Shown here: positions 26,760 to 63,584 of the stretch, in pieces
Numbering within the stretch: the stretch's first letter is position 1
Layout of the letters: the number at the start of each line of letters is the position of its first letter
Virus record (IMG/VR): IMGVR_UViG_3300028275_000007
Origin: a virus
Lineage: Duplodnaviria; Caudoviricetes
Reading direction: 5' to 3' (one strand)
Length of the DNA stretch: 64,000 nt
The notes under the pieces: model-generated
Database searches by the model: none
What the model saw: only the letters and a program-made list of their open reading frames with translations
Told to the model about the DNA's origin: nothing
Program-made: the position numbers and the translations under genes

Positions 26760-27042
26760 TAAAAGAATTTTAGAAGATTTTAAAAAATATCAAGACTCTA
26801 TTGATAGAATAACCAACGAACCGCTCAAAGAAGAATTGAGTAAGTTGCTTAAACGTCTTAAAGAGCAGGTAGGTCACATAGACCGAAATCACGAACAGCT
26901 GATAATTTCTGGAAGAATCCCAACAGAGATCAGCGAAATTAGATCTAACATAGCGTCAATTAAAAAATCATTGGATTTTAAAATTGACGCTTGGAATAGA
27001 TCTAATAACGTTATGCCTGCGCCTCTCCCCAACGTAAAATAA
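26737..27042 (+). CDS. Hypothetical helical protein
   Basis: 101-aa ORF; its 3' end overlaps the convergent 27011 ORF. Confidence 0.6.
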   Translation: MLPTLRTDKRILEDFKKYQDSIDRITNEPLKEELSKLLKRLKEQVGHIDRNHEQLIISGRIPTEISEIRSNIASIKKSLDFKIDAWNRSNNVMPAPLPNVK

Positions 27043-33000: not shown

Positions 33001-33466
33001 TTGCAGCCGCACCGGATTCTGCATTAGAGCCTACATATTTTGTTTGTGTTAGTCCGTTGCCGTATGAAGGAGTTACTGTTAAGTTAGTAAAAATAAAATT
33101 GTTAATAACATCTCTTAGGTACGCTTGTCCAGTAATCTCAGGACTAACATCTCCACGAATCTGTGGCTCACCGTCAATCCAAAAATAATCTGCTACTTGA
33201 CGACATTTAACGTTTCCACCGTATCTTAAATCGTGAATGATAGCATCTAAAAAATATCCAACATCTCGTGTACATTTTGCTGAAGCATATGTGTAATCTA
33301 CATACGGTGCAACATCGTTGGCTATCTGATCGTTAATAAACGCAACTACCTGTGCTTGTAAAAATGCTTTGTTAGCTGTCAATAATGCCACAGCATTTGG
33401 AAATAAGTTATCATCCTTACCTACACCTGGTTCAAATACATATTGTTTTATCTGTTTCTTTGCCAT
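27011..33466 (-). CDS. Giant tail/baseplate protein (2151 aa): phycobiliprotein-like N-terminal domain, beta-rich spacers, beta-propeller
   Basis: KCTRDVGYFLDAIIHDLRYGGN; about 6-7 W..xAyg.g.FvAv blades; Thr/Ser/Gly-rich. Confidence 0.75.
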   Translation of the reverse strand: MAKKQIKQYVFEPGVGKDDNLFPNAVALLTANKAFLQAQVVAFINDQIANDVAPYVDYTYASAKCTRDVGYFLDAIIHDLRYGGNVKCRQVADYFWIDGEPQIRGDVSPEITGQAYLRDVINNFIFTNLTVTPSYGNGLTQTKYVGSNAESGAAARNTSLWSVFSTVISDGIPSMPAKLPGVSSIRLLGKYEPNEILLITNTDTGEILYNFADPGNTITCTFKQGRSSGDGQLLSDVDFKTWWMITDTITTIELSVDTSQTSSSASLQIFVEEPSQQIRPWEFGTDAIERMRVAAPQAMLDADFEYGLQPTKWQALGLIRGYPSVYEIPGTDLSVVAITTDASSNTGYFGSSLITVTTSGTHGFTVGQPITVKGTNPSVNGFGRAEGSFLIYSIPSSVSFTYYSSAKVGTVNGESLYTSFIQIRQAGFYTGASIGQPTFSVYSNGNNLTVISKFNTPASSTQIAFDGTSPTIGSPISGSPYISQGTSVAGVVGSGTIVATIKDTTAADDINFTVTNPVGIQQGMAISNAGDSVFVTSLDGSLINLNGTVGAVLVGANAVITNQTGSNVAQVGTSATFDVSRSAGTYLIVTVNNAGSGYAIGDRLLISGSSLGGDSTNDITIVVDTLTGDAIATFSFSGTAISGGATYTSVLQSTTTGAGTGARITVVRTGGTGAYNITLADGGASFAPGDTVTWAGTSFGGASPANDITLQVDGVTAGAIVDYTISGSPVGDSGDAAYTGISSSNIAVIGSGAVFDVTRTDGVYSATIVSGSEGTDYAIGNRIIIAGNNLDGITPDNDCTLLVTGISSGAITTVTASGTPFAGDTISIYPTLTVSEPITGEITDGTSLNVGAIATIQIDFTSNHGLVPGTTVLTSISSQPAPGFAATARSLPTSLTGWNSVAGLNGRFVAVGGAGTASAYSIDGQTWLAGGTLPTSTTWVGIAAGTIGSVDYFLAIGNSGTTSAYSTNGGGTWTSTTLPSSGTWQSITFSNGVFVAHVSGGTATAYSLDGQTWVAGGALPSSTTWSKIAAGLIGSSTYFVVVATGGTAAAYSADNGISWTATGALPSSGTWNTLAYGYNRFLAVASGGTAAAYSTNGTSWTSVTLPATATWTNMVFGDDNFVLQASGSTTILTSFTGETGSWTSRTASASATWAGMAYLSYQGLGIFVSTANGTTAQSIVLTSANHQIATGPHVIVSVPTPTSVRLPARTTGTIDTSSVPLAGVVYARPDAYFTHRPFDGGVQLGTGNPSHGAQAIRQSKKYIRYQSGKGIMYTTGGLFAPSYNLSSATADGTTENSLITFTCDDTDHGLQAGAEIEIIGMVSFEYNGDYIVESIIDARRFRVRAGAVLSSTTGSLGPEAKVIMKRWHGSTVRIGAFDEQNGLFYQYDGREMAVVRRSSTNQLTGTVGISVDSNLITGTGTRFQDQLKVGDKVVLRGMSHIVTSIASQTSMTVSPDWRGATTITGAKLCVTQDLYIPQSEWNIDRLDGTGPSGYNILPWRMQMLGMQYSWYAAGFAEFMLRGSDGKFIFLHRMRNSNVNTEAYMRTANLPVRYEVENRSAVNKLAAAITSTAQTIPLTDASRFPNSGTIYIDNEVISYSGKSGNSLVGCTRAASFLTFIAGVNRTMSGGPNQAHPANSGVQLISCTTTPTISHWGSALLTDGMFDSDRGYIFNYAATGLSISTAKQTAFAIRLAPSVSNAIVGDLGERDLLNRAQLLLNQIAITADSGSGAIVVEGVLNPKNYPTDPAKITWTGLSSSASGGQPSFAQIALGGSINWGGVAPYTTTATVQGALTTTVAARSFSTVQNTIAAIAQPTGLTGQTSGIALSISRTDFYITNTQYDTLLTTTPLRVGDTLAAAPNFITGGQSITSITRAYLGSAYTRIIMSAPANNSSTLNTNVNVTVTSSISTAYASAVSTTRNDFLITNADYDVSYMQSSDILSASTYVTVNQTISSITRSYATVSGVSYTRIVMSSNGNSISPAGTGNNVTITITAAGSAASYAGTNYLFFTSPSWNASSGTVGTRVATSFTQFPAGTSVSAVSPRRLGSTTIQRVTFTQTSSATISAAGTVTFQFGDPQYAIPGEQVFSFLCQPGSLNALDLSELKELTTTAVGGRGAFPNGPDVLAINIYKTTGTAVPGGIILRWGEAQA

Positions 33467-33478
33467 TTATTTTTTTCC

Positions 33479-34075
33479 TTATGCGCCAAACGCAATAGCA
33501 AATGCTGAAATTCTTGAATCAACATAATCTTTTCTTGTAGCGTGGTTTGGTTGAGTAGGTATTTCACTTAAATTTACACTTCCTAACACGTCAATACTTC
33601 CAGTAACATCTACATTTTGTGTAACGCTAACATTTCCTTGAACTGATAATTCTCCAGAACTATCACCTGGACCAATGTTTACTGATTTAAAATTTGCGTC
33701 GCCTGGGTCTTTCAAACCTATATCAATATTATCAATGGTGCCAACTGCGGCCACTGAATTGATAGTAACAACTCCGTTTACAATTTGAATGTATGGAGAT
33801 GATCCTTGAGCAATGGTAAAATCGCCATCAATTTCTAAACCATCTAATACTCCTAACTGTGTTAGTGAGCTGTGTTTAATTTGATCGCCAAGGCTGACTA
33901 CAGAGTCAGTGTTATCAATAATTAATACACCATTAACTGTAAATGTTGGTGCGACATCTAACTGACTTGTGAATAAAACTGCGCCGTTTACACGCAGGTC
34001 GCCAACTTCGTTGACGTAGAAACCGGGGCTTTTAAAACCGCTTTTTGACTCAAAAGGAATATAAGATACTGTCAT
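33479..34075 (-). CDS. Short tail-fibre-like protein
   Basis: HATRKDYVD fibre motif and hydrophobic end ISAFAIAFGA; perfect TATAAATA at 34124-34131. Confidence 0.6.
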   Translation of the reverse strand: MTVSYIPFESKSGFKSPGFYVNEVGDLRVNGAVLFTSQLDVAPTFTVNGVLIIDNTDSVVSLGDQIKHSSLTQLGVLDGLEIDGDFTIAQGSSPYIQIVNGVVTINSVAAVGTIDNIDIGLKDPGDANFKSVNIGPGDSSGELSVQGNVSVTQNVDVTGSIDVLGSVNLSEIPTQPNHATRKDYVDSRISAFAIAFGA

Positions 34076-34143
34076 TTAGATCTCCGCTATCACTCCAACT
34101 TCACCTTCTACAAAGACTATGTGTATTTATACGGGCTGAAAAG

Positions 34144-34581
34144 TTAATAGCTAACAAGATCATTAATAGTGTGATAGTAAGTTACGCTGTGTATTACTTT
34201 GGCGCCTTCTAACAATGTAGAATTGTCATAGGTGCTATCTTCTGGGCTGTTTGCTGGATTTATTAACACCTGTACTTTTGCTTCGTTAACCGCAGTGGAT
34301 AATTCTATTAAGTTTTCACCTAAATTAGTTTTTCCATATACTGTAACGCTGGCTGTCTCTGGTCCTGCTACAACTAATGCTTTTACAATTTCTTTTCTAA
34401 AATTTCCCACATCTACAACTATCGTGTATTCTGCTGCCATAAAATCTCCCACATACCATTCGTCAAGAACAGTACCTGGAAAAACAGACATCCACGGGCC
34501 TTTATAGGCAAAATTCACGCCGTTTTGAATACGCAGGGTATTCTTAATTCCTTGGAAAAAGTATTTTGCAAAATTGATCAT
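34144..34581 (-). CDS. Hypothetical tail-associated protein
   Basis: 145-aa beta-rich ORF after ATAAATA. Confidence 0.6.
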   Translation of the reverse strand: MINFAKYFFQGIKNTLRIQNGVNFAYKGPWMSVFPGTVLDEWYVGDFMAAEYTIVVDVGNFRKEIVKALVVAGPETASVTVYGKTNLGENLIELSTAVNEAKVQVLINPANSPEDSTYDNSTLLEGAKVIHSVTYYHTINDLVSY

Positions 34582-34603: not shown

Positions 34604-34627
34604 AAAAAAGCCCTTTCGGGCTTTTTT
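34604..34627 (-). terminator. Intrinsic terminator
   Basis: AAAAAAGCCC-GAAA-GGGCTTTTTT. Confidence 0.9.
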
Positions 34628-36452
34628 AGTTATTCGGAATATGAACTAATTTTCCGTATTCTGGAAGAAATAGATATTCAATATCCGAATTTTGAAGTGT
34701 CCACACAGCATCGTCTAGGGTTTCAACTAACGGTTCTCCACCTAAATTAAAGCTGGTATTAAACAAGATAGGAACTCCTGTTTCTTCTTTAAATGCACTG
34801 ATCAAATTATAGTAGTGTTCGTTCTGTTCTTTAGTAACAGTTTGAATACGACAAGTATGATCTTCGTGGATAATTGACGGAATCTTTTCCTCAATTCCGG
34901 GTTGACAATTTACAGCGTACATCATAAATGGGCTATCTTCCATTCCTCGTAGATCAAACCACTCGTGTACATCGTCTTGCAAAATACTTCCGGCAAATGG
35001 ACGGAAATATTCACGATGCTTAACTGTATTCACAAAATCTTTACCGTCTTTGAACGTAGGGTCAAATAAAACCGAACGATTACCTAGAGCACGTGGACCG
35101 TTTTCTGAGCGGCCTTGGAACATTGTAACAATGTTTTTCTCTCTTAAGAGTTTAACAACATCTTTGTAAGTAGCATCAGTAACTGTTCCGCCTACAGAAG
35201 AAACTTTAGTTTCAATTTCTTCGTTGGTATAAGAATACGCAGGTCCAAGATACAGAGTGTCGTATTTTCTAACGGTAAAATCGTTATACATTCCGTGCCA
35301 GAACATTAATGCTGCACCAATGGCTGTACCTGCGTCATTTGAAATAGGTTCTACATAAAATTCAATACCTTCGTCTTTTAGATATTGCAGATAATAGTAG
35401 TTTGCAACACAGTTTAATCCGTAACCGCCTGACAATACAACCTGTTTCTTACCGCTTTTTTCAACAGCCAATCGAATTAATTTTAAAACTTGTTCCTGAC
35501 TTTGTGTTTGAATAGCATATGCTAGGTCTCTACGACTTTGCATTTCAGTAACATCTTGTCCTTCTTGCGGAAGGTCTTCTAATGAGCTGAACAAGTTCAT
35601 ATTAACAATACTGCTCATTGGATATTTGGGAACAATTAAATTCCTATTTGATAGTGGGAAACTTCCACTTTCATCAAACAATGGGGGGATTTGATCGTTG
35701 GGTTTACCGTAGGGGAACAATCCCATGGTCTTACCTGCTTCGATAGCAGAGAAACCGCAGTATTCAGTTACACCTTCATAGACCTTAACAATGCCTGCAC
35801 GATCAGTGAGTAATGCCTCGTGAGTTTGATTGTTTTCTCCTAGCGGTGCTGAATCAAAATCTGGAATATAAGAAGCAGGAATTGGTTCTCTAGTACCGTA
35901 GTGTTTTCTTAAAGTTTTAAATTCTGCAGGATATTCGCAGTCAACAATAGATTCAACTTCCCAAAACCATAGTTGTTGATTATCGTAGCTAAATGGAAAG
36001 AATGTTCCAGCACCGTCGACGATTAAGGATACAGCATCTTTAAATCCGCTTCTATAAAAAGCACAGGCAGCGTGAAGCTTATGATGCATATGGCTGAAAT
36101 CAATTACCTGAGGGTGGCGCAAGGGAGTACTGGTTTTTCTATCAATTAAACCTAACTTACGAGCCATACCTGTGTAAATGTCGTCACCGGAGTAATCAAT
36201 TTTACCAGCAGTTTCATACAAATTCTGTGTATGAGCAACAATAAGATAATCTAGTTTATCAGTATACTCTAGAATTTTTACCATCGAAGCAAGAGGGCCG
36301 CCGTCATACTTTTGGCGTGTTAGTCTTTCTTCTTCGACTGCAAATACAATCTCACCATCTTTTAGTAAACATATACCAGCATTATGTCCTCTGGTAATAC
36401 CGGCAATCCATACTGGTTTTTTATTTGATTTTTTTACAGATGTAACACTCAT
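34626..36452 (-). CDS. O-carbamoyltransferase, NodU/CmcH/TobZ family
   Basis: GHNAG..EEER, HHKLHAA, IVDGAG, GKTMGL.PYG, SGGYGLNCVAN, GPRALGNRS, KHREYFRPFA, NTSFNLGGEPLV. Confidence 0.92.
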   Translation of the reverse strand: MSVTSVKKSNKKPVWIAGITRGHNAGICLLKDGEIVFAVEEERLTRQKYDGGPLASMVKILEYTDKLDYLIVAHTQNLYETAGKIDYSGDDIYTGMARKLGLIDRKTSTPLRHPQVIDFSHMHHKLHAACAFYRSGFKDAVSLIVDGAGTFFPFSYDNQQLWFWEVESIVDCEYPAEFKTLRKHYGTREPIPASYIPDFDSAPLGENNQTHEALLTDRAGIVKVYEGVTEYCGFSAIEAGKTMGLFPYGKPNDQIPPLFDESGSFPLSNRNLIVPKYPMSSIVNMNLFSSLEDLPQEGQDVTEMQSRRDLAYAIQTQSQEQVLKLIRLAVEKSGKKQVVLSGGYGLNCVANYYYLQYLKDEGIEFYVEPISNDAGTAIGAALMFWHGMYNDFTVRKYDTLYLGPAYSYTNEEIETKVSSVGGTVTDATYKDVVKLLREKNIVTMFQGRSENGPRALGNRSVLFDPTFKDGKDFVNTVKHREYFRPFAGSILQDDVHEWFDLRGMEDSPFMMYAVNCQPGIEEKIPSIIHEDHTCRIQTVTKEQNEHYYNLISAFKEETGVPILFNTSFNLGGEPLVETLDDAVWTLQNSDIEYLFLPEYGKLVHIPNN

Positions 36453-45000: not shown

Positions 45001-48000
45001 GACCATTGATTATTTGGTTCACCGCCGCCGCCGCTGGCCGCAGTTGGCATTGTTACAGATGTCCAAGTTACGCCGTCTAAGGAGTAAGCAGCAACACCAG
45101 TACCAACTGCAACATATTTGTCGCTAATTGCAGTACCGCTGGATGTGATATACGAAATAGAGCCGCTTGGGCTGTTTACTGTTTCAACAGTGATTGTAAC
45201 ATCGTTTGCTGGAGAAGTTCCGCCGAGTAGGGCTCCGGAAATTGTTAAAGTATCTCCGGCAGTATACAATGCTCCTGGTACTACCAATTCTACTGTATAA
45301 ACACCTCTTCTTCTTGAAACATCAAATGTTGCTAAACTTCCAGTTCCGCCAGTTGCAGATAAACCAGTATATGCGCCATATCCGTCACCGTAGACAACAT
45401 CTGCCCAGGCTGCGCTTGTAGTAATGTCTGCTACAGTTTTTGTAAATGGAGGAGCAGTAAATGTCAATCTTGGAGTAATAACATAAGAACTTGTAACGTC
45501 TAATGCTGCTTCAATTGGAGTTCCGGCAACAATATGCTCCCAACCAGCTGTTCCTGTAGATGGTTTATAGATTGTTGCTATTTTAGAACCTGCACTATAT
45601 GTATTAATATAACCGTATTGTCCAGCACCTGTACCAGCAATAATATCAATTCTCATTCCTACATATGCTGCACTCGATGAAGTATCAGCAGCAGCTAGTG
45701 TAATTTGAGTTGTGTTTCCGTCTTGTGCTAGGTTTGCGGCAGTTACATAACCCACGCCACCAATGCCCGAACTATCGCCCGGATCGGTTAAACGAACATT
45801 GAATACTGCGCCATCTCTAAATTCATTTGCTACAGTAGTAACACCGTAACCAGCACCAGATGTTGTAAATGTTGCTTCAGTATAGTCTGTACCAGCATTG
45901 CCAAACTCATATGCTAATATTTGTTGTCCGTCAGTTAATACACTTCTAACGTTGGCTTCAGATGCACGGTTGTTAATTTGTCCTAATACTGGAACTTCTG
46001 TAACGTCAACACCTTCTGCCACAGAACCAAAGTCTCCGTAGGAGTTGTTACCGTTTGTAGCACGGATCTTACCACCGTTTTCTGCTAGATATCCAACGTG
46101 TGAGTAGTATGTGAACACAGAAACAAGTTCTGCACGTCCTAGGTTAGTTACCCACGCACCAATACCTCCAGAGATAACCTGTGTAAAGTCGTTGGAAACG
46201 ATAGAATCAACTCCGCCAGCGTGTAGTGATCCGTCAATCTTTTGACCTGTTGCTCCTGTACCAAAAGTTGTTACGTTTTGTACATATGTAGATCTTGTGG
46301 TTACCCATACACGATCGTCATTTGGACCCCAACCTGGATCTAGAGAAACATAAGCACCAGCTACTGGTCTGCGAGTACCAAATTCGTTGGCTTCGTATAG
46401 ACCGTCTGGATAACTTCCTGCACCGGAAATATTACCGTCCGAACTACCGTCTAAACCAAATAATGTTTGATTACGGATTCCGCAACCGTTTCTTACATAG
46501 AACATCCATTCTAATCTAGAACCTGTTAATGCACTTCTGTAGTAACGTGCTGCTCTTGTAGAGTTGTAGTTACCTGTGTACATCAAATCTTGAGAAATTG
46601 CTGTGATGTAGTTTCTTACATCATTCTCACAAGATGCCTGATTGTATGAATACTTAACAGTCATTGTGCCAGTTGCTGTTGATAAGTCAACTGGAGTAGT
46701 ACTGTCTAATGAAGTAGATACTTTAAATGTTGTAGCTGTTAATCCGCTAGCTAATACATAGTAAGTTGTCGAAGTTGTAACTCCACCAAATGTTGTACCT
46801 GTGAATACTACAGCATCACCTGCAACCATCCAAGTTTGAGAACTGCACGTAAATGTATCAGTTCCTCCGGTAGATGCTGTTACAGTTGCCTTGAATGTAT
46901 TAGCAATGTATGCGGTAGCTTCTGCAACCATGAATTCTTTGTTAAGTTCGAGAATTTTTCCGCCGTTGATAACATTAACATCAGTGTTTGGAAGATTTGT
47001 TCCAATAATAATTGGTGATGTTCCAGTATTAGCATAATTGATAATATCTGTCCACAATAGATCGGCTTGAACCACAGCTCCGCTGGCTGCTGCAAATGAT
47101 GCTTTCTTAGAAATAAAATCAATAATTGCTAGAGTTTCTGTTTTCTGAGATGTTAGAACAATACCTGTGCTTTCTAGACCTCTATAGTAGGCCATGCCGT
47201 TCTGAATAGATAAGAAGTTCGAACCAAACATCAAATCATAGCCAAGAGCATCAATCATATAACCAACGTCACGAGAACAAGTTGTTGTGTTAAAGTTTAG
47301 AGTTGGATATTCTCTCTTGATATATTGAACTGCATCTGCTTGAATGCTTGACTTTGCGGCATCTAAGACTGTTTTTGCAGTTACTAATGCTGTTGCTACC
47401 CAGGCGGTGCTTGGAGCGATTGTTGTAGGCTCAGTACCAGTATTGATAGTGTCGTACATTTCTTGGATGCGAGCCTGTGCAAATTGTGCAGCAGCTAAAG
47501 ATCCTGGTGTACCGCTAACATCTTGTGTTAAACCAGTAGTCTTTGTCCATCCTGCGGTATTACCTTGTGCAATATTGTCAATAATATCTTTGATGCGTAG
47601 TTGAACAGCTAGGGCTTGAGATTTCTCTCCAGTTTCAACAAACACGCCATTACTGTAGTAAGAACGTGCTGCAATTTGAGTTGCAAGGTTTCCGCCGTAG
47701 GTTAAGTCGTAGACCAATGCATCAACAATATAACCAACGTCACGCTCGCATTTTGTTTGTCCAGTTCCGCCATATACGAATCCAACAAACGGGCTAATGT
47801 TTCCAGAAATTTGTGCGTTAATCCATGCACTAACTTCAGATACTAAGAATGCCTTGTTTGCAAGAATTAATCTTCTTGCATTAAAGTAGCCTGTGTCATA
47901 ACCTGTTGGATCTGGATATACATAGGCATTGGCAGATCCTAATCCGTTAGCAACAATGTCTTTAATTTCAGCAGCGTTTGCAATTACTGAACTAACTGCT

Positions 48001-50354
48001 GTAGTGCTACCTGTGCTACCTGCAAGTTGTGCGGTAGTAATTTGAGTTTCAGTATTTCCAGTTGTTGGAGTAACAGAAACGTTAGTAATAATTTCGTCTG
48101 TAATAGCTTGTAGACGTGTTAATGTTGCAATTGTTTTTGCTTTGTCGTTTGTAGGAATAATCTTTCCACGAGGACTAATTCTTGCAGAACGTAGTTCGTC
48201 ACCAACAATGGCTGTATTTGCCGGTACGTGCATTGGAAGAACTTCATAGTACTCACCAGTTTTTACGTTAACTGTATAATTTGGAAGGTCCTCTAACGGC
48301 ATTCCGGCAGTTGTACCTGCGGTAACTGCATCTGTAATAATTGCTGCTAGGCTTACACAAACATCTTCTGCATCAGTTTCTGCTGTGTAGCTAGTATCGA
48401 TGATCTGTTTTGTCTTAGAAGAAACACCGTTTAATGTTTGGTAGTTTGCCGCTGGTGCTGTATTTGCTAAAACGCTTTGTAATACAGTAACACCGTAGTT
48501 GATTGCAGCAACTAATTGATCGTCTTCGTCTTGAATTGCAGTGATCAATGCTGTTCCTGCTGCGTTGAAGTAAGATTCAGTTGCTTCGCGAGTTTTTACG
48601 TTACCAGTATGTGTTAGGTCATAGATAATTGCGTCTACAATTAATCCCATATCACGTTCACATAGTGCATCGTTATCGTTGGTAAATCCAACCCAAATAC
48701 CTGTTGGATGTGCAATCTGATATTTCACCCATTCAGCAATTTCACGTTGAATGAATGTTCTATTCATTTTTAATAGATATGCTGCGTTAGGATACTCTGT
48801 TCCTGCTTCTACTTGTTCAAGAGCATAGCGAACGCTAGCCCAAGGTTTATCTAAAGTTGTTCCGTATGTTGGCGCAGGAGAATTTGTACCGCCTGGTGCA
48901 ACATAGAATACATTTTTAACTTGGCCAAAATATTTCCAAGTTGGAAGTCCTGAATTAACTGTTAATACTTGTCCTTCATCACCGACTGGCAAACGTGTTG
49001 GTCCAGCGCCGGAGTAGTAAACTAAATCACCGATTGATGTTAAAACACTTTCTTCATTACCAGCTGTTAATAGATTCCAATATGTGCCGGTGATATCATT
49101 ATCTGGTCGATCAGATCCTGTAGTAGCGGTGTGCGCTTGAACGCAAATATAGCTGTTTGGTCCGTACTTAACAGCGTCACCAAGTACGTATACAGAGCCA
49201 TTTAGCCAGTTTCCAGACCAATTAATACCTTCATTTAATTTTGACCAATATGATCCGTTTGGTGGTTTATGATTTGTACCATCTGCTGTAGCAACATAGG
49301 TGTAGCCGCCTAGTCTAACAATTTGTCCTACGCGATATGCAGTACCAGCATCCCAGTCACCAATTAACGTAAATCCGGTTGTGAATAAATCGTAATTTGT
49401 TGAATCATTAGATGGTGTGTCTGATGCTACTAAAGAATTCTTAACAATGTAAGTGTTTCCACCGTATTTTACTATGTCGCCTGGTTGATACTCAGTTGTC
49501 GATGCCCATTCACCTTTGAAGGAAACACCTTCGACAAATTGATTCCAGTTTGAGTTATCTGTTACAAAGTTTGCTGATGTGTGGTCTGTAACACAGATCC
49601 ATAATCCGCCGCTAGATTTAACTACATCGTTGACTTTGTATCGAACAGCAGATAACCAATCACCTTTATATTCGATGCCTCTGTTAAAATAGTCCCACTT
49701 GCCTTGATCGTTTTCTAGTCCTAATGAAACTGTAGCAGCTGATGTGTGGCCTTCATTACAAACGTATGTTGTTCCGCCATATTTGACAATGTCACCAATT
49801 TTATATTTTTCGTTGGTGCTCCAATCGCCCTTCCAGTCGTTGCCTTTGGTAAAGACATCCCATTTTCCTAAGTCAACTTCTAACCCGTCAGTGGTTGTTG
49901 AAGCCGATGTATGTGCTGTATTACATAGGTAAACATATCCGCCGTATTTTACTAGGTCATTAACTTTATAAACAGTATTTGTATCCCAAGATCCTGTCCA
50001 ATCAAAACTTTCCGCAAATAAATCCCAATCACTTTGGTTAGTTTCTAATACAGAGCTTGAAGTATGGCCGTTGTTACAAATATAAACATATCCGCCGTAT
50101 TTTACAATATCGTTTTGTTTATAAAGTGTAGTTGCTGTCCAATCACCTTTCCAAGATTGTCCATCGCTAAATTGGTTCCAACGTGCTGGAATATTTTCTA
50201 AATCTGTATAAAAATCTGCATCTGCGGTGTGACCAATAACGCACACGTAGGTCTTACCACCGTAAGCCACGATATCATCTTTGTAGTACGAAGTACCGGT
50301 TGCCCAGTTGTCTTTCCATACAAATTTAATTCTACCTAGTTTAAATTCAGCCAT
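42060..50354 (-). CDS. Giant tail fibre/spike A (2764 aa)
   Basis: 8 CBM5/12-like repeats, beta-helix-like segments, 4 phycobiliprotein-like repeats, two beta-propeller blocks; C-terminus shared with 50402..55870. Confidence 0.8.
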   Translation of the reverse strand: MAEFKLGRIKFVWKDNWATGTSYYKDDIVAYGGKTYVCVIGHTADADFYTDLENIPARWNQFSDGQSWKGDWTATTLYKQNDIVKYGGYVYICNNGHTSSSVLETNQSDWDLFAESFDWTGSWDTNTVYKVNDLVKYGGYVYLCNTAHTSASTTTDGLEVDLGKWDVFTKGNDWKGDWSTNEKYKIGDIVKYGGTTYVCNEGHTSAATVSLGLENDQGKWDYFNRGIEYKGDWLSAVRYKVNDVVKSSGGLWICVTDHTSANFVTDNSNWNQFVEGVSFKGEWASTTEYQPGDIVKYGGNTYIVKNSLVASDTPSNDSTNYDLFTTGFTLIGDWDAGTAYRVGQIVRLGGYTYVATADGTNHKPPNGSYWSKLNEGINWSGNWLNGSVYVLGDAVKYGPNSYICVQAHTATTGSDRPDNDITGTYWNLLTAGNEESVLTSIGDLVYYSGAGPTRLPVGDEGQVLTVNSGLPTWKYFGQVKNVFYVAPGGTNSPAPTYGTTLDKPWASVRYALEQVEAGTEYPNAAYLLKMNRTFIQREIAEWVKYQIAHPTGIWVGFTNDNDALCERDMGLIVDAIIYDLTHTGNVKTREATESYFNAAGTALITAIQDEDDQLVAAINYGVTVLQSVLANTAPAANYQTLNGVSSKTKQIIDTSYTAETDAEDVCVSLAAIITDAVTAGTTAGMPLEDLPNYTVNVKTGEYYEVLPMHVPANTAIVGDELRSARISPRGKIIPTNDKAKTIATLTRLQAITDEIITNVSVTPTTGNTETQITTAQLAGSTGSTTAVSSVIANAAEIKDIVANGLGSANAYVYPDPTGYDTGYFNARRLILANKAFLVSEVSAWINAQISGNISPFVGFVYGGTGQTKCERDVGYIVDALVYDLTYGGNLATQIAARSYYSNGVFVETGEKSQALAVQLRIKDIIDNIAQGNTAGWTKTTGLTQDVSGTPGSLAAAQFAQARIQEMYDTINTGTEPTTIAPSTAWVATALVTAKTVLDAAKSSIQADAVQYIKREYPTLNFNTTTCSRDVGYMIDALGYDLMFGSNFLSIQNGMAYYRGLESTGIVLTSQKTETLAIIDFISKKASFAAASGAVVQADLLWTDIINYANTGTSPIIIGTNLPNTDVNVINGGKILELNKEFMVAEATAYIANTFKATVTASTGGTDTFTCSSQTWMVAGDAVVFTGTTFGGVTTSTTYYVLASGLTATTFKVSTSLDSTTPVDLSTATGTMTVKYSYNQASCENDVRNYITAISQDLMYTGNYNSTRAARYYRSALTGSRLEWMFYVRNGCGIRNQTLFGLDGSSDGNISGAGSYPDGLYEANEFGTRRPVAGAYVSLDPGWGPNDDRVWVTTRSTYVQNVTTFGTGATGQKIDGSLHAGGVDSIVSNDFTQVISGGIGAWVTNLGRAELVSVFTYYSHVGYLAENGGKIRATNGNNSYGDFGSVAEGVDVTEVPVLGQINNRASEANVRSVLTDGQQILAYEFGNAGTDYTEATFTTSGAGYGVTTVANEFRDGAVFNVRLTDPGDSSGIGGVGYVTAANLAQDGNTTQITLAAADTSSSAAYVGMRIDIIAGTGAGQYGYINTYSAGSKIATIYKPSTGTAGWEHIVAGTPIEAALDVTSSYVITPRLTFTAPPFTKTVADITTSAAWADVVYGDGYGAYTGLSATGGTGSLATFDVSRRRGVYTVELVVPGALYTAGDTLTISGALLGGTSPANDVTITVETVNSPSGSISYITSSGTAISDKYVAVGTGVAAYSLDGVTWTSVTMPTAASGGGGEPNNQWSSIAYGAINGVSFYVAVAKASATGAYSRDGINWTASSLSEVADWCDVAYGNGSFVAIAASDSSSAFRALSTNATSWSINTIANGAVAIAYGGSRFVEIEGNFSNSVAYSASGAAWTVTTLPSNDDSTESNWVDIAYGNGRFVAISDSSAMAAYSFNGATWYKSNLPGLYEWSSINYGQGVFYVTSKGEYSATSPDGVTWTLRDGSTASLNATSTAKNKISTAFTESTALTSGTWTDVIYTGSSFYAVGYSGSAGLYAYSTNGTSWTNSTLPTVNSTYEYTSIAYNGTNQYVAIIGGNGGTRNIAYSSNGTSWTGQLNALSGNAYWKQVIWAGDRYIALRGDGAAVNYSTDGTTWTNSAVTSGSSEMSSVAYGNIGGTNYIVTVSGYSTGSQTSSYSTNGGVSWTSGNTLPSSSYWSSVTFGNGKFVAVAGSSGTPTTKAAYSTNGTTWTAATMPGAAANWNKVVYASTGYVAFAYGSSRTAYSEDGITWVEGPAQATSRNWGPAAYGGTTLVSAATGTTYASKATFVLNTNYVTTSSTTNLRAGDKVKFTGTTLGGLISGSYYYITSVPSSTEFTVSTTQGGSNVVLTTGSGTSAFLASRDFVASALGNYNADPRWVVLATGTAGVQNIRQGATTRARAYVSPDNQITEIWITEPGSGYVTPPTMTITDPNNTGSDATSTVRVGNGAIAQPMFTNRGTGYTAASADISGNGYADNYQVSTYVSFKNLDGVPKAGANVQIAGIDDVWYRLVNVTGLIPNGDGTYNATLQLSPALGAAEAPEHEAAVTIRRRYSQVRLTGHDLLDIGTGNIISSNYPGLPLVDPVPAQEYRLSEGGRVFYTSTDQDGNFRVGGLFNVEQATGIATLNADAFNIAGLNELSLGSVALGGSGATITEFSTDPFFTADSDSVVPTQRAIKAYITSQIGGGGSSLNVNTLTAGVIYIAGQTIATTTNVAININTKVNFKGGIVGDALVLNYFLLNN
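46530..48795 (-). repeat. Four phycobiliprotein-like helical protein repeats
   Basis: LCERDMGLIVDAIIYDL, KCERDVGYIVDALVYDL, TCSRDVGYMIDALGYDL, SCENDVRNYITAISQDL. Confidence 0.65.
49080..50330 (-). repeat. Eight CBM5/12-like (chitin-binding type 3) repeats in fibre A
   Basis: W.G.W...T.Y...D+V.YGG..Y.C...HTS eight times. Confidence 0.75.
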
Positions 50355-50401: not shown

Positions 50402-53400
50402 TCACGATTTTGTAAAATAATTCAATGCAAGTAACGTACCGTCTACTCCTCCGGTAAAGTTTACCTGGCTACCAAATATTAACTCATCTCCGCTGGTTGT
50501 AGATATTAGGTCTGGACCAATAGTTACAACACCTGCAGTCAACGATCCAGTGGTAGCATCTGAACCACCTCCTGAAACTCTTGCAGTCAAGTATGCTTTA
50601 ATTGCTCTCTGTGTAGGAACAATGTTATTACTGTCAGCGATAAAAGTTCTGTCTGTTGAGAATTCTCTAATAACTGTTCCAGAACCGCCTACAGAAACTC
50701 CACCTATTCTAATTTCTTCTAGACCTTCTAACTGGAAGAATTGTGCGTTTAATGTTACAGTACCTGTAGATTGTTCAACAGCAAATAATTCTCCGCAACG
50801 GAAATTACCTTCTTCGTCAGTTGATGTATAGAATACACGACCTCCGTTGGCTTCATATACCTGGTTTTCAGGAGATATTACTGACCCGTTTGGATTTAGT
50901 GTATCTGGATAATTTGTTTGATAGTAGTTTCCTAGACCAATTTCTAAGAAATCGTGACCTGTTATGCGGCATTGTGAATACAATTGTCTAATTGTTACAC
51001 CGGTACCGTGTTCAGGACTTTCTTCTCTACCTAAATCTTTAGCAATTTCTAATTGTGCTGTATAATTTCCGGTAGATCCTCCTAACACAACAGCTCTCAA
51101 CAGTTTATATGTGTAGTCGTTAATACCTGAAATATTAACGTTATCGCCCGGGCTTGGAATTCTATCTAATCCCTGTACAACTAGATATCCGCCTATTTGA
51201 TATTCATCTTTGTATCCGTCGCCAGAGACTGATACTCGTGTACTGGTTGTTTCGTATCCTTCACCTGCATTTAGAATGGTTGGGTTTCCTAAAACTCCGT
51301 TGCCTGTTCTTACCTGTACAAATACATCTGTGTCTGCATTTGGATCAACAATAGTCATAACCGGAGCAGAAGTATAACCACTACCTGGTTCCCAAATTGT
51401 TAATGCAGTCATTCTTCCGGCTACCACATATGCTCGTGCTCTAGCTGTGGCTCCTGTCTGTACAGATCTAACAATTGTAGAGTTTGCTGTAAGTCCTGCT
51501 AATACTAACCACTTTCCTGGTTTTGTATTTGCGCTATAGGTTACAGAACACCACGGAGATGAAGTTCCTAATGATTGGTAATTCCACAATACACCGTCTC
51601 TAGACGTTGCACATACTGTAGTTCCGTTAGCGACTGCAAAGAATATGCCCTGAGCATATGTAATTTCTCTCCAATCTTGTGCTTGAATAGTTTTTTCTGT
51701 CCAGGTAATACCATCCCAACTTATAGAAACTTCAGTTGCACCGGCATATCCTCCAGACAATGCAACAAATCTTCCGTTACCGTAGGCTAAAGAATAACTT
51801 CCCTGAGTGATTGAACCTAAGGTCCAGGTAATTGCATCAGAACTGTATGCTACTGCTGCTGAAGTAGAATCACTTAATGCTGTAGTCACATACTTGCCCT
51901 TACCATAGGCTACAGAATTCCAGTCAGCGCCTTCAGGAAGAGTAGATGCTATCCAAACCGATCCGTTTGTACTATAAGCAGCCTTAGTGCCACCGCTTGC
52001 TACAGCTACCCATTTTCCGTTACCGTAGGTAACATCACGCCATTCAGCAGTCGAAGGCATAGTCATTGATGACCAATTAATTCCATCAGTTGACGAAGCT
52101 GCGCTGCCGTTTGAAGCAAATGCCATAAAAATACCATTTACATAACGAACTCGAGTCCACAATGCTGAGGAAGGTAATGTTGTAGTATCCCAGGTCACAC
52201 CATTATCTGTGGTATATGCTACAGAATTTGTATCCAACGCTACAGTCACAGCAATTTCATCGCTGGCTGCAATGCTAGACCATTGTCTATTGGCTGGTAA
52301 AGTTTTAGCAGAACTACTAAAACCAGGACTACTCAAAGTTACTCTTGGTTCTATAAAATAATTTGTTGACTTATCTAGTGTAGGTTCGATGGCTCGACCT
52401 TCATCTAAATGTTCCCATCCTAATTGATGTAAGGTCATTGTGCCTACACCATTTACTAAATTAAATGTTGCTCCCGGACCTGCTGTGTCACTTATTGTAA
52501 TCGATGTACTGCTAACAATAGTTTTTACATAATAAACAGTCAATGATTCAATATTTCCGTATGTAGTTCCAGTAAACATTATAGGATCATTAACAGATAA
52601 TGCTGAAGTAGATCCTACAGTAACTCTCATTCCAGAGGATGATGTTCCAGTTACTGCAATAGAACTTGTTGATTCTTTAGCAATGTAAGCATATTTTCCA
52701 GTTTCGTCAAAGTCAGCAATATATCCATACTGTCCTGTGCCTGTTCCTCTTCCGATAACTAATCTTAGTCCTCTGTAGGCTTCAGCAGTTTCAATGTCTG
52801 AACCAGCTAACTGTATTGACACAGTATTTCCGCCTTGTGAAGAATTAGTAATAAATTTATATCCAAGGCCGCCTTCAGCAGACGAGTCTCCTGGATTAGC
52901 GATTCGAATTTCTTGTACACCGCCGTTTCTAAATTCATCAACTTCTACAGAAGCATTAATACCTGATCCAGTAATTGTAAATGTTCCGGCCGTGTATTCT
53001 ACACCTGCATTACTAAAGAACATTTTTTGAAGACCACCTTCGTCGTTGATTAATGTTTGATAAACGTCTGCATCATAGTATCTATTGTTAACTGTTGCTG
53101 TAATAGGTGTTTCAGCAATATTATATCCTTCTGAAACTGCACCTAATACTCCGTATGAACAGTTGCCGTTAGCAGCTCGAATTTTTCCACCGTTGGTTGC
53201 TAGGTAACCAATATAATTATAATATGTAAACACTGAAATACATTCAGTTCTTCCTGTGCCGTTGGCCCATACACCGATACCATCGCTGATAACCTGTGTA
53301 AAGTCGTTGGAAACCATAGTTTGATTTCCGCCAGAGTGTAGGTTTCCGTCAATCTTAAATCCAATACAGCCAGTACCAAAGGTTGTGCAGTTTTGAATAT

Positions 53401-55870
53401 ACGGAGATCTTGTTCCTACCCAGGCCGATTCGTCTGAAGGACCGTATCCAGGATCTAAACTAACAAATGCACCAGCAGTTGGTCTGCTGGTTCCGTATAC
53501 GTTAGGAGCACTTAGAGTTCCCTCTAATCCTCTCATGGTCATATTTCTAATACCGGCAGCGTCTCTGCAATAGAACATATTGCTGGCTTTATTGGCTGTA
53601 AAATCTGAACCGTTAATAAAGAATGTTGAAGCTTCTACTGTTTTATAATTTCCAACATACAAAATGTCGTATGCAAGAGCATCAATAATTCTTTCAATGT
53701 CAAAATCCCATCTATCAGGCAATGGCATTAATAGTGGATTAGTTTCTTGAACATATCCTGCAACCTGGGCTTTTATAAATTCATAATTGTTTTCAATCTG
53801 CGCATTTGCGTTTATATTTCCTGCCGCAGCAGATGGTGTATTTGTACTGCTTATCGATACATTATACTGCGTTTCAATTCTATTTTTCAACATTTCAATC
53901 AATGTTGTTAAAGAAACAATCTGTAAATTTTCTGCTGCTGATGCTGTAAAATCTTGAAATATATCTGTATTGTATAAAAGAACATCGGGTTGATCAACAA
54001 TAGTTTCACCTACTGCTACACCTAATACAATTCTAGAAATTAAAGGTTGTAGATAATCTAATGCTGACAAGATTAAACTAATATAATCTGAACTAAACGG
54101 TGTGTCTGCTGGAAATACTGTCACAGATCTAATGTCATCACCAACTAGTGCTACATAAGGCTGTACTCTAATTGGTAATATTTCTGGATAGTCGCCTGTT
54201 CTAATAAAAATTGTAGAATGAATAGGAACATTTTCTGTAGCGTATCTGATGGATCTCCATGCGCTTTGAGGACTTGTTCCTCTGTTAGGGCCGTCTATCC
54301 CTTCTGGTGAAACAAAGAATACATTCTCTGAATTTAATAGATATTTCCAAGCTACTTCGCTGTTATATGCTGTAAGTGCTTGACCTTCTTGGTCTACTGG
54401 TAATGCTTTATAACCAATTGTACTTCCATCACCAGTGTCGCCAAATGTTCGAACATCGCCTACATTTTTTAATCTATTAATTCTATTACCGTCGGTAACT
54501 TTTTTCCAATATCTTCCTAGCAAAGAACTATCAACTAAGCCATCATCATCGGGTCTATTCCCATTATCAGAAATGTGTTTATCTAAACAGGTATATGTAC
54601 TGGATACCCATACAACAGTATCTCCAGCAATATAAGTGGTATCAGGAGCCCATACTCCTCTCCACTTTATTCCTGTGGTTAATAAATCCCAGTATACAGA
54701 ATTAGTTGTGCTGTTGTCGTCTAAAAAGTCTGGGTCTTGATTTGTATTATCTAACAAACAAGAATAAACATTTCCTCCACGTCTAACAACATCTCCTAAT
54801 AGATATTGAGTTGCCTGGTTCCAATCGCCTCTCATTTTTAAACCAGTATATAATAATTCCCAGTTAAATGGTGAGAACGGAGGTTCTTGATTGGTGTGAA
54901 TTCTTAGAGATTTATATAAATGACCACCATAACTTACAATATCACCTATTTGATATAATGTAGTTTCATCCCACTGAAGGTCATACTCGTTACCTGGACA
55001 GTATATGTCAAACTGTTCTGACCCAAACACAGATTCCGATGTGTGGAATGTGTTTGCAATATAAAGATATGCACCGTATTTTACAACATCATTAACTTTA
55101 TAAATTGTAGAAGATTGCCAATCACCTTTGTACTCTGTTGACTGATGTAATAAAGTCCACTTTCCTTGATCTTTAGGTAATCCTAATGTGTCAGTTTCTG
55201 CAGAAACGTGAGGAATTTGACAAATGTAAACATTTCCGCCGTACTTTAAAATATCCCCAAATCTATATCTGGTATTTGTTGACCAACTATCTCTCCATGA
55301 CTGAGAAATAACTACCTCTTCCCAAGATGATTGACTTGCTTCTAATCCTTCAACTATTGTTCCTGCTGAAGTATGAGACAGTACACATCTATAAACTTTT
55401 GCCCCATATATTACAATATCATTTATTCTATAATATGTACCAATAGACCAATTAGTTCTCCAGTTCGTAGACGAAATGTATGTTGTCCATTTTCCAGAAT
55501 CAATTTCAAAACCAGATTCTAAATTTGCAGTTTCAAGTTCTGGAAATTTTGAGGTATGGGCTTCTGTACAAACGTAGGTTACGCCGCCAACGGAAACAAT
55601 ATCACCAACTTTATAATATACATCATTAGTCCACGCTCCTAGCCAACTTGTGCCGTCTGCTACTAATTCCCACTTTGGAGATAAAACAGGAGGTATATCG
55701 CTGTTATAATAATTTAAATCGTAATAAAAATCTGCGTTTGATGCATGAGATTCAATACAGTTATAAACTTTGCCGCCAAAACTTACAACATCATCTGGGT
55801 TATATTTGCTGTGAGCACTCCATACACCTCTCCAGGTATATTTAAATCTGCTTATTTTAAAATCTGCCAT
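50402..55870 (-). CDS. Giant tail fibre/spike B (1822 aa), paralogue of fibre A
   Basis: MADFKISRFKY.W versus MAEFKLGRIKF.W; 8 CBM-like repeats; propeller; shared GGRVFYTSTD...VPTQRAIKAY C-terminus. Confidence 0.8.
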   Translation of the reverse strand: MADFKISRFKYTWRGVWSAHSKYNPDDVVSFGGKVYNCIESHASNADFYYDLNYYNSDIPPVLSPKWELVADGTSWLGAWTNDVYYKVGDIVSVGGVTYVCTEAHTSKFPELETANLESGFEIDSGKWTTYISSTNWRTNWSIGTYYRINDIVIYGAKVYRCVLSHTSAGTIVEGLEASQSSWEEVVISQSWRDSWSTNTRYRFGDILKYGGNVYICQIPHVSAETDTLGLPKDQGKWTLLHQSTEYKGDWQSSTIYKVNDVVKYGAYLYIANTFHTSESVFGSEQFDIYCPGNEYDLQWDETTLYQIGDIVSYGGHLYKSLRIHTNQEPPFSPFNWELLYTGLKMRGDWNQATQYLLGDVVRRGGNVYSCLLDNTNQDPDFLDDNSTTNSVYWDLLTTGIKWRGVWAPDTTYIAGDTVVWVSSTYTCLDKHISDNGNRPDDDGLVDSSLLGRYWKKVTDGNRINRLKNVGDVRTFGDTGDGSTIGYKALPVDQEGQALTAYNSEVAWKYLLNSENVFFVSPEGIDGPNRGTSPQSAWRSIRYATENVPIHSTIFIRTGDYPEILPIRVQPYVALVGDDIRSVTVFPADTPFSSDYISLILSALDYLQPLISRIVLGVAVGETIVDQPDVLLYNTDIFQDFTASAAENLQIVSLTTLIEMLKNRIETQYNVSISSTNTPSAAAGNINANAQIENNYEFIKAQVAGYVQETNPLLMPLPDRWDFDIERIIDALAYDILYVGNYKTVEASTFFINGSDFTANKASNMFYCRDAAGIRNMTMRGLEGTLSAPNVYGTSRPTAGAFVSLDPGYGPSDESAWVGTRSPYIQNCTTFGTGCIGFKIDGNLHSGGNQTMVSNDFTQVISDGIGVWANGTGRTECISVFTYYNYIGYLATNGGKIRAANGNCSYGVLGAVSEGYNIAETPITATVNNRYYDADVYQTLINDEGGLQKMFFSNAGVEYTAGTFTITGSGINASVEVDEFRNGGVQEIRIANPGDSSAEGGLGYKFITNSSQGGNTVSIQLAGSDIETAEAYRGLRLVIGRGTGTGQYGYIADFDETGKYAYIAKESTSSIAVTGTSSSGMRVTVGSTSALSVNDPIMFTGTTYGNIESLTVYYVKTIVSSTSITISDTAGPGATFNLVNGVGTMTLHQLGWEHLDEGRAIEPTLDKSTNYFIEPRVTLSSPGFSSSAKTLPANRQWSSIAASDEIAVTVALDTNSVAYTTDNGVTWDTTTLPSSALWTRVRYVNGIFMAFASNGSAASSTDGINWSSMTMPSTAEWRDVTYGNGKWVAVASGGTKAAYSTNGSVWIASTLPEGADWNSVAYGKGKYVTTALSDSTSAAVAYSSDAITWTLGSITQGSYSLAYGNGRFVALSGGYAGATEVSISWDGITWTEKTIQAQDWREITYAQGIFFAVANGTTVCATSRDGVLWNYQSLGTSSPWCSVTYSANTKPGKWLVLAGLTANSTIVRSVQTGATARARAYVVAGRMTALTIWEPGSGYTSAPVMTIVDPNADTDVFVQVRTGNGVLGNPTILNAGEGYETTSTRVSVSGDGYKDEYQIGGYLVVQGLDRIPSPGDNVNISGINDYTYKLLRAVVLGGSTGNYTAQLEIAKDLGREESPEHGTGVTIRQLYSQCRITGHDFLEIGLGNYYQTNYPDTLNPNGSVISPENQVYEANGGRVFYTSTDEEGNFRCGELFAVEQSTGTVTLNAQFFQLEGLEEIRIGGVSVGGSGTVIREFSTDRTFIADSNNIVPTQRAIKAYLTARVSGGGSDATTGSLTAGVVTIGPDLISTTSGDELIFGSQVNFTGGVDGTLLALNYFTKS
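54500..55845 (-). repeat. Eight CBM5/12-like repeats in fibre B
   Basis: Same consensus as in fibre A, eight copies. Confidence 0.75.
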
Positions 55871-62408: not shown

Positions 62409-63584
62409 TTAAGCAAAACGTAGGTTTGCAGATGTAACATCAACAAGAGCCAAGTAGTCAGCAGCATTACCTAGAGATGATGCTGTGTTTGTTAACTCAA
62501 CATAACCGTATCTGGTCATGAAAGAAACTACTGGTTCAAATGTAGATGGATCTAATACAACACCGCTGCTCATCAATGGAATGTATGGGCAGTAGAATGC
62601 TGCTGCGTCAGACTCGGAAGTACCTTTGTAACCAATCAATACTTTGTCGTCTTCTGCGTATGTGTTTACATACACTTTCATTGCGCTGTTCAATGTACCA
62701 ACGAACTTGGTGTTTGTTGGAGCTTCGAAAGTGCCTTCTGTAGTGCGAGCAAAAGCAGAAGTTGTAGCAGACTGTAATAGTGTTAATACAGTTGGTGATA
62801 CAACAGCCCAGTTACCTGCGCCACGACGTGTACGTTGTGCGATCAAGTTAGAAGCACGGTTGATTTGAACAGCTAGAGCAGCGTGTTCGTCACCAACGAA
62901 TGTAGCTGTACCAGAAACTGCTGCTTGGTCGTATGTTAATACGGCTGTACCAGCTAGTGTCTTCAAGCTACGTAGAACTTCTTGATCAATCTCAGCTGTG
63001 ATCTCTTGTGCAAGAGCAGCCATGATTTCTGCTTCGATGTCAATACCTTGTTGGGCTTGTGCATCTTGAGCAGCTTCAAATGTCCAGCGAGCAGACAACT
63101 TACGTGTCTTAGCTTCGACTGTTTGTTTCAAGATTTGAATGCTTAGTCTGTTACCTGCTACGCCTTCTAAAGCTGCTGTAGAAGCTGCCTTATCAGAACC
63201 AGATACACCAGAATAGCCTTCAGCAATCTTGAATGGGCTTAGTGCCTCATCGCCAGCTGTAGTGTTACCACCAGCAGAACCACTGAATGTGTCGCTGTAG
63301 CGAACACGTAGAGTATGGATCTGACCAACTGGGCCTGTCATTGGTTGTACACCAACTAGTTCATTAGCAATGACTGTTGGCATTACACGTCTGATCACAG
63401 GTAGGATCACACGATTTAGGGTTGCAACGTTACCGGCGGAAGTAGCACCAGCTGTAGCACTCTCTGCCAAATACTTGCGGGTATTCTCTAGAGTAGTTGC
63501 CATAACTGTACGCTTGTTACCTTGTAGGCCTTCTAATAGAGCCTCTTTAGTTTCCGACCAGCGTGACTCGAGTAGTTGTGACAT
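62409..63584 (-). CDS. gp23: Major capsid protein
   Basis: IRRVMPTVIANELVGVQPMTGPVGQI, AKTRKLSARWT.E.AQD, EITAEIDQE, FYCPYIPL, FMTRYG. Confidence 0.95.
   Translation of the reverse strand: MSQLLESRWSETKEALLEGLQGNKRTVMATTLENTRKYLAESATAGATSAGNVATLNRVILPVIRRVMPTVIANELVGVQPMTGPVGQIHTLRVRYSDTFSGSAGGNTTAGDEALSPFKIAEGYSGVSGSDKAASTAALEGVAGNRLSIQILKQTVEAKTRKLSARWTFEAAQDAQAQQGIDIEAEIMAALAQEITAEIDQEVLRSLKTLAGTAVLTYDQAAVSGTATFVGDEHAALAVQINRASNLIAQRTRRGAGNWAVVSPTVLTLLQSATTSAFARTTEGTFEAPTNTKFVGTLNSAMKVYVNTYAEDDKVLIGYKGTSESDAAAFYCPYIPLMSSGVVLDPSTFEPVVSFMTRYGYVELTNTASSLGNAADYLALVDVTSANLRFA

Follow-up and report, generated by a model that had tools for sequence, protein, structure and literature searches.

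Why should a phage tail fibre carry helical repeats that read like the chromophore site of phycocyanin? The question is raised by a 64,000-nucleotide stretch of DNA (the window, analysed here at its full length) from the IMG/VR virus record IMGVR_UViG_3300028275_000007 (Duplodnaviria; Caudoviricetes), which encodes a very long putative tail fibre protein. A sequence-only reading of the window had noticed in this fibre four repeats with a Cys-x-Arg-Asp (CxRD) core resembling the bilin attachment site of phycobiliproteins (PBPs), and had proposed that the virion displays covalently attached bilins for light sensing, photoprotection or host binding. Sequence comparison and structure prediction give solid grounds to regard the fibre domains as true PBP-type globins that comprise helices A-H and lack the X/Y dimerisation helices. 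Judging from sequence and analogy, we consider covalent attachment of a bilin to the Cys of CxRD the best single explanation of this site, at about even odds (probability about 0.5).

The fibre repeats are phycobiliprotein-type globins

The six peptides quoted in the sequence-only reading are all present in the translation of the fibre gene, and the positions that it gave for the four Cys codons are exact (Table 1, repeats R1 to R4). The tandem repetition is real: by piecewise BLAST, R1 aligned with R2 at E 4e-19 (81 amino acids, 41% identity), R2 with R3 at E 2e-11, and R4 with R1, R2 and R3 at about 1e-5. The repeat unit is about 155-175 amino acids long, instead of the 120-150 first given. 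Of the four repeats, R1, R2 and R3 are full copies; R4 is split and truncated, and an extra half copy and a small beta insert had been overlooked. The loss of Arg described for R4 was read correctly, the triad being C-E-N-D with Asn in its place.

The domain was described by a hidden Markov model (HMM) of 172 positions, iterated over 266 fetched relatives, and by an alignment, A1, of 122 diverse single copies. Neither the fibre protein of the window nor its single repeats matched the PBP family PF00502 at E<=10, and there was no match in the whole record. The same search of contigs bearing a ferredoxin-dependent bilin reductase (FDBR) returned nothing either, the Pfam model being too distant from the phage domain. 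When residues 520-1275 alone were searched against the PDB (E<=10), the sole match was phycocyanin 6jpr_A, on the motif, at E 0.36. Such values would be expected if a short motif had arisen by chance or convergence on an unrelated helical repeat, an explanation that we find hardly credible because homologues of the fibre match PF00502 over the whole domain and above its threshold of 22.2 bits (P0026, 29.3 bits; P0081, 30.4 bits, spanning profile positions 33-138 of 155). Several full-length fibre homologues bear precomputed PF00502 matches, and 25 of the 122 single copies match the family at E<=1 (best 2.8e-5), any other family being matched by two copies at most. The A1 profile retrieved 31 PDB sequences at E<=10, 30 of them phycocyanin alpha or phycoerythrocyanin beta chains; in the best match (6jpr_A, E 0.0016), profile positions 6-61 align with residues 38-104, a region that runs from helix B through the loop into helix E. 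The likeness does extend past the motif, as had been proposed, with the helix preceding it aligning to phycocyanin alpha residues 38-62 in the family profile. A parallel between the C-terminal helix and phycocyanin had also been drawn, in the form VVQADLLWTDIINYA. Among the copies of the window, R2 resembles phycocyanin alpha most.

Structure prediction pointed in the same direction. A template-free AlphaFold2 model of R2 (residues 817-991), computed from phage sequences only, has six helices, with a mean predicted local distance difference test score (pLDDT) of 93 and a predicted template modelling score (pTM) of 0.88. In a Foldseek search of the PDB with this model, all of the best 50 rows were PBPs, with probability 1.00 and template modelling scores of 0.44-0.65. 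VIA-align, which is independent of Foldseek, placed phycoerythrin beta (5aqd_M) first, with Z 14.2 and a root mean square deviation of 2.6 A over 146 residues. Its first eight rows were PBPs (Z 14.2-11.8, with allophycocyanin and ApcE at 13.7-11.8), followed by bilin-binding photocobilins at Z 11 and then by haem and non-haem globin sensors. The globin-like structure that the sequence-only reading had anticipated is therefore predicted, with PBPs foremost, and the extent of the match, well in excess of the motif, argues further against convergence. A search of AlphaFold DB clusters gave weak rows only (best E 0.09), in which PBPs, globin sensors and RsbR were mixed, and contributed nothing to what the PDB searches had given. 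The structural alignment of R2 reaches the C-terminus of phycoerythrin beta; at the other end, structural alignments begin at PBP residue ~29-31 and the Pfam match at profile position 29-33, so that the X/Y helices are missing, as had been stated. A second AlphaFold model, of 786 residues (515-1300; pLDDT 87.9, pTM 0.84), shows R1, R2 and R3 as six-helix units; between R1 and R2 it places a beta insert of five strands together with two additional helices. The PBP-like domains succeed one another directly in one chain.

Judged by its sequences, the domain family is large and confined to phages. Clustered at 50% identity, it falls into about 860 groups, and a single protein can contain up to ~35 copies. 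Full-text searches of the literature turned up no account of this domain in phages, and the 2023 study of PBP relatives by Rockwell, Martin and Lagarias (PMC10151467) contains no phage globins.

Cys, Arg and Asp are conserved across the domain family

The proposal had relied on a Cys that is conserved and unpaired, and both expectations were borne out. Over 2468 copies of the domain, the motif columns hold Cys in 94%, Arg in 94% and Asp in 99%, with the full triad in 2224 copies (90%); the three are among the five most conserved columns of the domain. Outside the motif no column reaches more than about 6% Cys, and in 76% of full copies there is just a single Cys. As the motif Cys is the only conserved Cys, a conserved disulfide is unlikely. 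The motif aligns residue for residue with Cys84, Arg86 and Asp87 of phycocyanin. It is present in R1, R2 and R3 and in a further copy at the N-terminus of a 2151-residue giant virion protein of the window. We also aligned 53 orthologous fibres at 58-85% identity, in which 13% of the columns of the region are invariant; the counts for each repeat, including the Asn of R4, are given in Table 1. A degenerate copy in an 1822-residue giant protein reads W-D-F-D in place of C-x-R-D and is still recognised by the family HMM, which suggests, as far as sequence can tell, that the triad is dispensable for the fold.

Covalent bilin attachment as a proposed explanation of the motif

The alpha and beta subunits of PBPs (PF00502) share with the phage domain the globin helices A-H, the CxRD of helix E, the G-G after the motif and a segment of helix B. 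The closest PBP is C-phycocyanin alpha by sequence, and phycoerythrin beta and allophycocyanin by structure. The phage domain differs in the missing X/Y helices, in an identity of only 12-20%, and in invariant residues of its own (Asp at +14 and Tyr at +30 relative to the Cys, and the Asn of G-G-N). PBPs are free subunits of 17-20 kDa, whereas the phage domains are fused in tandem within a putative virion fibre; because the X/Y helices are absent, neither an alpha-beta monomer nor an (alpha-beta)3 ring is expected for them.

Three known systems are informative in this context. ApcE (Z 12.3 for 4xxi; also 7eyd, 7sc7 and 9wg7) likewise carries a PBP-like domain within a large multidomain protein. 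This domain has a loop insert, and ApcE attaches its bilin autocatalytically. Copy R4 of the fibre also has an insert, between helices B and E. Unlike the fibre, ApcE has a single PBP domain and is a cellular protein of the phycobilisome core. The globins BBAG-1 and BBAG-3 are CXRD relatives of PBPs found outside cyanobacteria, not involved in light harvesting and linked to genes for haem oxygenase (HO) and FDBR (PMC10151467). CXRD is the covalent bilin site of PBPs, and BBAG-1 and BBAG-3 attach bilins without lyases (PMC10151467), which makes these CXRD globins a precedent for lyase-free attachment in jumbo phages without CpeT; BBAGs differ from the fibre in being single-domain cellular proteins encoded in conserved gene clusters. 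Finally, photoglobins or photocobilins (8j2w and 8j2y, Z 11.0) are bilin-binding globins that serve in light sensing as part of a larger protein. They are less similar to the phage domain than PBPs are and differ by a CXQD motif, specificity for biliverdin and fusion to a B12 domain.

Homology with PBPs, a lone conserved Cys accompanied by Arg and Asp, and the BBAG precedent make bilin attachment the best explanation in our judgement. Under this explanation, a bilin would be bound in the cleft between helices B and E during folding of the fibre inside the infected cell, and would become attached through a thioether to the one Cys that is conserved. The host could supply the bilin, or a phage HO together with an FDBR could do so, and its attachment could be self-catalysed, as in the BBAGs and ApcE, or aided by a lyase, either that of the host or, in cyanomyoviruses, phage CpeT. 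Each fibre chain of the released virion would bear several bilins and, more speculatively, the pigment could make the fibre respond to light, as it would if it gated adsorption. Of the original proposal, the PBP-type globin repeats without X/Y helices, the conserved CxRD and the lack of a disulfide stand; attachment is plausible, and light sensing by the fibre is speculative. The most extended version, in which the fibres are virion-borne biliprotein photoreceptors that undergo a light-driven change of state, act as the sensor of cyanomyovirus adsorption and are the substrate of phage CpeT, HO, PebS and PcyX, seems to us doubtful.

Bilin genes in jumbo relatives and cyanomyoviruses

The major head protein of the window (62409-63584, minus strand) is 67-72% identical to the capsids of jumbo myophages of 290-470 kb (Phosso, Vibrio 2.275.O, PA5oct, GAP32 and CBB), whose hosts are Sinorhizobium, Vibrio, Pseudomonas and enterobacteria. 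With its capsid nearest to those of Proteobacteria jumbo myophages, the source phage is therefore a jumbo myovirus of ~350 kb and not a classical T4-like cyanophage; the latter origin was ruled out by the capsid identity together with the absence of psbA, which was not found in five related records.

All 12 related IMG/VR records carry the domain, in 7-20 copies. CpeT was not found in any of these 12 jumbo relatives, which is no more than compatible with self-attachment of the bilin. The sole complete relative, G001 (381,886 bp), has nine copies of the domain and adjacent genes for HO (33729-34154) and FDBR (32951-33508), the latter sharing 47% identity with the PcyX-type reductase of pelagiphage Mosig. 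The domains of G001 start at 164.9 kb, so that this cassette does not lie beside the domain genes. As a separate observation, the region 32951-34154 constitutes a two-gene cassette of the hemO-pcyX type, as in Mosig, in a genome without psbA and cpeT. Among 14 contigs of at least 53 kb, picked only for a PcyX-like FDBR, five carry the domain by the A1 profile.

When the fibre segment was compared with 50,697 isolate genomes, matches were found only in cyanophages (53 records). We searched 27 isolate genomes with the A1 profile and Pfam models, and found the domain in 17 of the 21 cyanomyoviruses tested. By the A1 profile it is absent from the cyanomyoviruses P-SSM2, S-SSM7, S-SM2 and S-CRM01, and from T4, HTVC008M, Ma-LMM01, P-SS2, Syn5 and P-SSP7. 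CpeT was detected in 14 genomes, all of which bear the domain (14/14). In S-PM2, cpeT lies 1.4 kb upstream of a domain-bearing fibre gene, and its placement in Syn1 and S-RSM4 is similar; the homologues in S-PM2 bear the annotation of tail fibre proteins and are encoded beside virion structural proteins. In the same genome (NC_006820, 165928-177267), ~16 tRNA genes are annotated inside the coding sequence of a 'short tail fiber protein' (S-PM2t009); a 3792-residue open frame spans this region, and the arrangement looks like an annotation oddity.

The phages P-HM1, P-HM2 and S-PM2 adsorb only in the light, and P-SSM2 and P-SSP7 adsorb in the dark (PMC6628666). The domain is present in the three light-requiring phages and absent from the two dark-adsorbing ones.

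Evidence against bilin attachment and alternative explanations

Several observations weigh against a bilin on the fibre, and the first concern ancestry. On a capsid tree, the 17 domain-bearing cyanomyoviruses form one clade (Shimodaira-Hasegawa approximate likelihood ratio test support 94); the domain requires one change on this tree and cpeT four, leaving a single independent pair, so that the co-occurrence of domain and cpeT may reflect ancestry alone. We therefore discarded the association as a statistic (14/3/0/4; Fisher one-sided 0.006), and with a single independent contrast it is compatible with the hypothesis and is not evidence for it. The match between domain and adsorption phenotype has the same single-clade weakness and carries no statistical weight. 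The gene content has exceptions in both directions: the domain-bearing S-ShM2, P-SSM7 and S-SSM4 have no CpeT match at E<=0.001, and the relative G002 (71% complete, 20 copies of the domain) has neither FDBR nor CpeT. Conversely, P-SSM2, S-SSM7 and pelagiphage Mosig possess HO and FDBR without the domain, by which the use of the two enzymes as a predictor of the domain was ruled out. The source record itself contains no HO, FDBR, CpeT or PF00502 match. The sequence-only reading had rightly found no bilin enzyme in the window, and such an absence says little, since the record is a 110-kb fragment with a completeness of 31% (CheckV). The capsid is closest to those of jumbo phages of Proteobacteria. 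Coloured cyanophage virions are not known to have been reported. The T-type lyases serve Cys153 of PBP beta and not the Cys-82/84 site (PMC10452541).

These points also limit the suggestion that the fibre is the missing apoprotein target of phage HO, FDBR and CpeT, which fits weakly: in its favour are the 14 of 14 CpeT genomes with the domain, the adjoining genes in S-PM2, Syn1 and S-RSM4 and the HO and FDBR of G001, and against it the single clade, the three genomes without CpeT, the three phages with HO and FDBR and no domain, and the site preference of T-type lyases.

The main rival explanation is that of a captured globin serving fibre architecture. A PBP-derived globin would have been taken over simply as a structural module of fibres, whether to act as a rigid spacer or to bind a receptor, and would carry no chromophore; CxRD and the invariant Asp, Tyr and Asn would be kept for packing, for contacts between domains or for a ligand on the host surface. 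We regard this as possible, if somewhat unlikely. The domain occurs in long arrays resembling shaft modules, of up to ~35 copies in proteins of up to 6382 residues, and the pTM of the 786-residue model suggests a fixed packing between domains. Degenerate copies persist (W-D-F-D, the C-x-N-D of R4 and the 10% of copies without the full triad), common descent accounts for the joint occurrence with bilin genes, which has exceptions both ways, and the two columns that vary least do not resemble PBPs. However, packing hardly explains a lone Cys in 94% of ~2500 copies from extracellular proteins whose mean column identity is ~24%, and the residues kept are exactly the bilin contacts of PBPs and of BBAG-1 and BBAG-3. 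Globins of the same fold (RsbR, globin sensors) have no such motif, and a copy that has lost both Cys and Arg can still be identified as this domain from its sequence.

The two columns just mentioned, Asp at +14 (99.6%) and Tyr at +30, are the most invariant of the domain and are not features of PBPs, and they could mark a different site. In another explanation, the conserved site binds or reacts with something other than a covalent bilin: it might hold haem or another tetrapyrrole non-covalently, coordinate a metal ion through Cys and Asp, or act as a redox-sensitive thiol. Asp at +14, together with a further acidic residue near the motif (Asp at +9, 80%), would suit such a role. Biliverdin-specific BBAG-2/photoglobins, which lack CXRD, and haem sensors also belong to the wider globin clade (PMC10151467), and both are among the structural matches at Z ~11. 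We hold this to be decidedly unlikely, as the closest proteins by sequence and by structure are PBPs and not haem globins, and the 14 most conserved columns include no His for haem ligation.

Layout of the fibre and its genomic setting

The fibre protein starts with N-terminal CBM5/12 repeats, continues with the PBP-like globin domains and ends in a beta-rich C-terminal part (Table 1). The half copy between R1 and R2 consists of two long helices (221-242 and 270-289 in the model) that fit the C-terminal half of the domain. In R4, helices A/B (612-639) are followed by a beta insert of ~80 residues (strands 641-721), by the Cys-bearing helix E and by one more helix (helices 725-763; HMM core residues 1235-1278); the last helices are absent. 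The beta-rich insert of R4 (residues 1155-1235, ~46650-46892) thus sits between globin helices B and E. Past R4, the chain of the 786-residue model becomes beta-rich.

Table 1. Coordinates of the fibre gene and of phycobiliprotein-like copies in the window, with counts of conserved residues in orthologous fibres
Feature	Position (nt)	Strand	Residues	Motif (Cys codon)	Basis	Orthologues
Fibre gene P0001	42060-50354	-	2764 aa		single open reading frame	
Eight CBM_5_12 carbohydrate-binding repeats	49005-50309	-	~16-450		Pfam PF02839, E 9e-42, 8 stretches	
R1, full PBP-like globin domain	48255-48809	-	516-700	C565-E-R-D (48660-48662)	family HMM E 1e-44, positions 2-173	Cys 51/53, Arg 53/53, Asp 53/53
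Five-strand beta insert after R1	48171-48278	-	~693-728		DSSP strands 179-214, model m27d842bae74f	
Half copy	47907-48164	-	731-816	no CxRD	HMM positions 80-161, E 3.5e-9	
R2, full PBP-like globin domain	47382-47906	-	817-991	C869-E-R-D (47748-47750)	HMM E 3e-56	Cys 52/53, Arg 53/53, Asp 52/53
R3, PBP-like globin domain	46950-47396	-	987-1135	C1026-S-R-D (47277-47279)	HMM E 1e-37 (aa 987-1092); model helices 474-596	Cys 53/53, Arg 53/53, Asp 53/53
R4, split, truncated copy	46521-46988	-	1123-1278	C1242-E-N-D (46629-46631)	HMM positions 2-44 and 35-76	Cys 53/53, Asn at Arg position 51/53, Asp 53/53
Full PBP-like domain in 2151-aa giant virion protein (27011-33466, -)	32945-33403	-	22-174	C65-T-R-D (33272-33274)	HMM E 2e-31	
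Degenerate partial copy in 1822-aa giant protein (50402-55870, -)	53600-53830	-	681-757	W-D-F-D for C-x-R-D	HMM E 1e-17, positions 3-79	

The fibre protein matches the PHROG tail-fibre families phrog_9851 (E 8e-173), phrog_4527 and phrog_5342, and its gene neighbours encode the tail sheath, the tail tube, the major head protein and terminase. Its product thus probably belongs to the tail fibre or virion structural proteins of a late structural module. The tail sheath protein (18122-21580, minus strand) is of unusual length, 1152 residues (phrog_10581, E 7e-219). Also within the structural module lies a Nol-like carbamoyltransferase gene (34626-36452, minus strand), whose product is 62% identical to the enzyme of Synechococcus phage S-SSM7. 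Cyanophages account for 117 of the 142 phage records matching this enzyme, a likeness that hints at gene exchange with cyanophages.

The source record comes from riverine metagenomes, and the fibre stretch was also seen in metatranscriptome libraries: positions 46530-48795 are matched with 0 differences by contigs of two DNA-labelled runs and two metatranscriptome libraries, all from the likely source samples. Position 48734 of the window (fibre codon 541) is the sole base that differs between the 64-kb window and the genome record G000, where the codon is TAA (stop) instead of GAA (Glu, the family consensus). The base of the window recurs in contigs of four public runs, which supports the open frame over the stop.

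Meaning of the domain for phage biology

The benefit of bilin genes to phages is called unclear in reviews (PMC2984593, PMC11480375). The puzzle extends to phages whose hosts have no standard phycobilisomes, namely Prochlorococcus and non-photosynthetic bacteria. A single domain makes three questions testable, namely what the HO, bilin reductase and CpeT genes of phages are for, what the light sensor behind the light-dependent adsorption of cyanomyoviruses is, and where PBPs came from. The origin of PBPs 'remains unclear' (PMC10151467), and the phage family of CXRD globins is a new branch that would have to be placed on the tree on which it is sought. A pigmented virus particle, if true, would be a new kind of virion modification.

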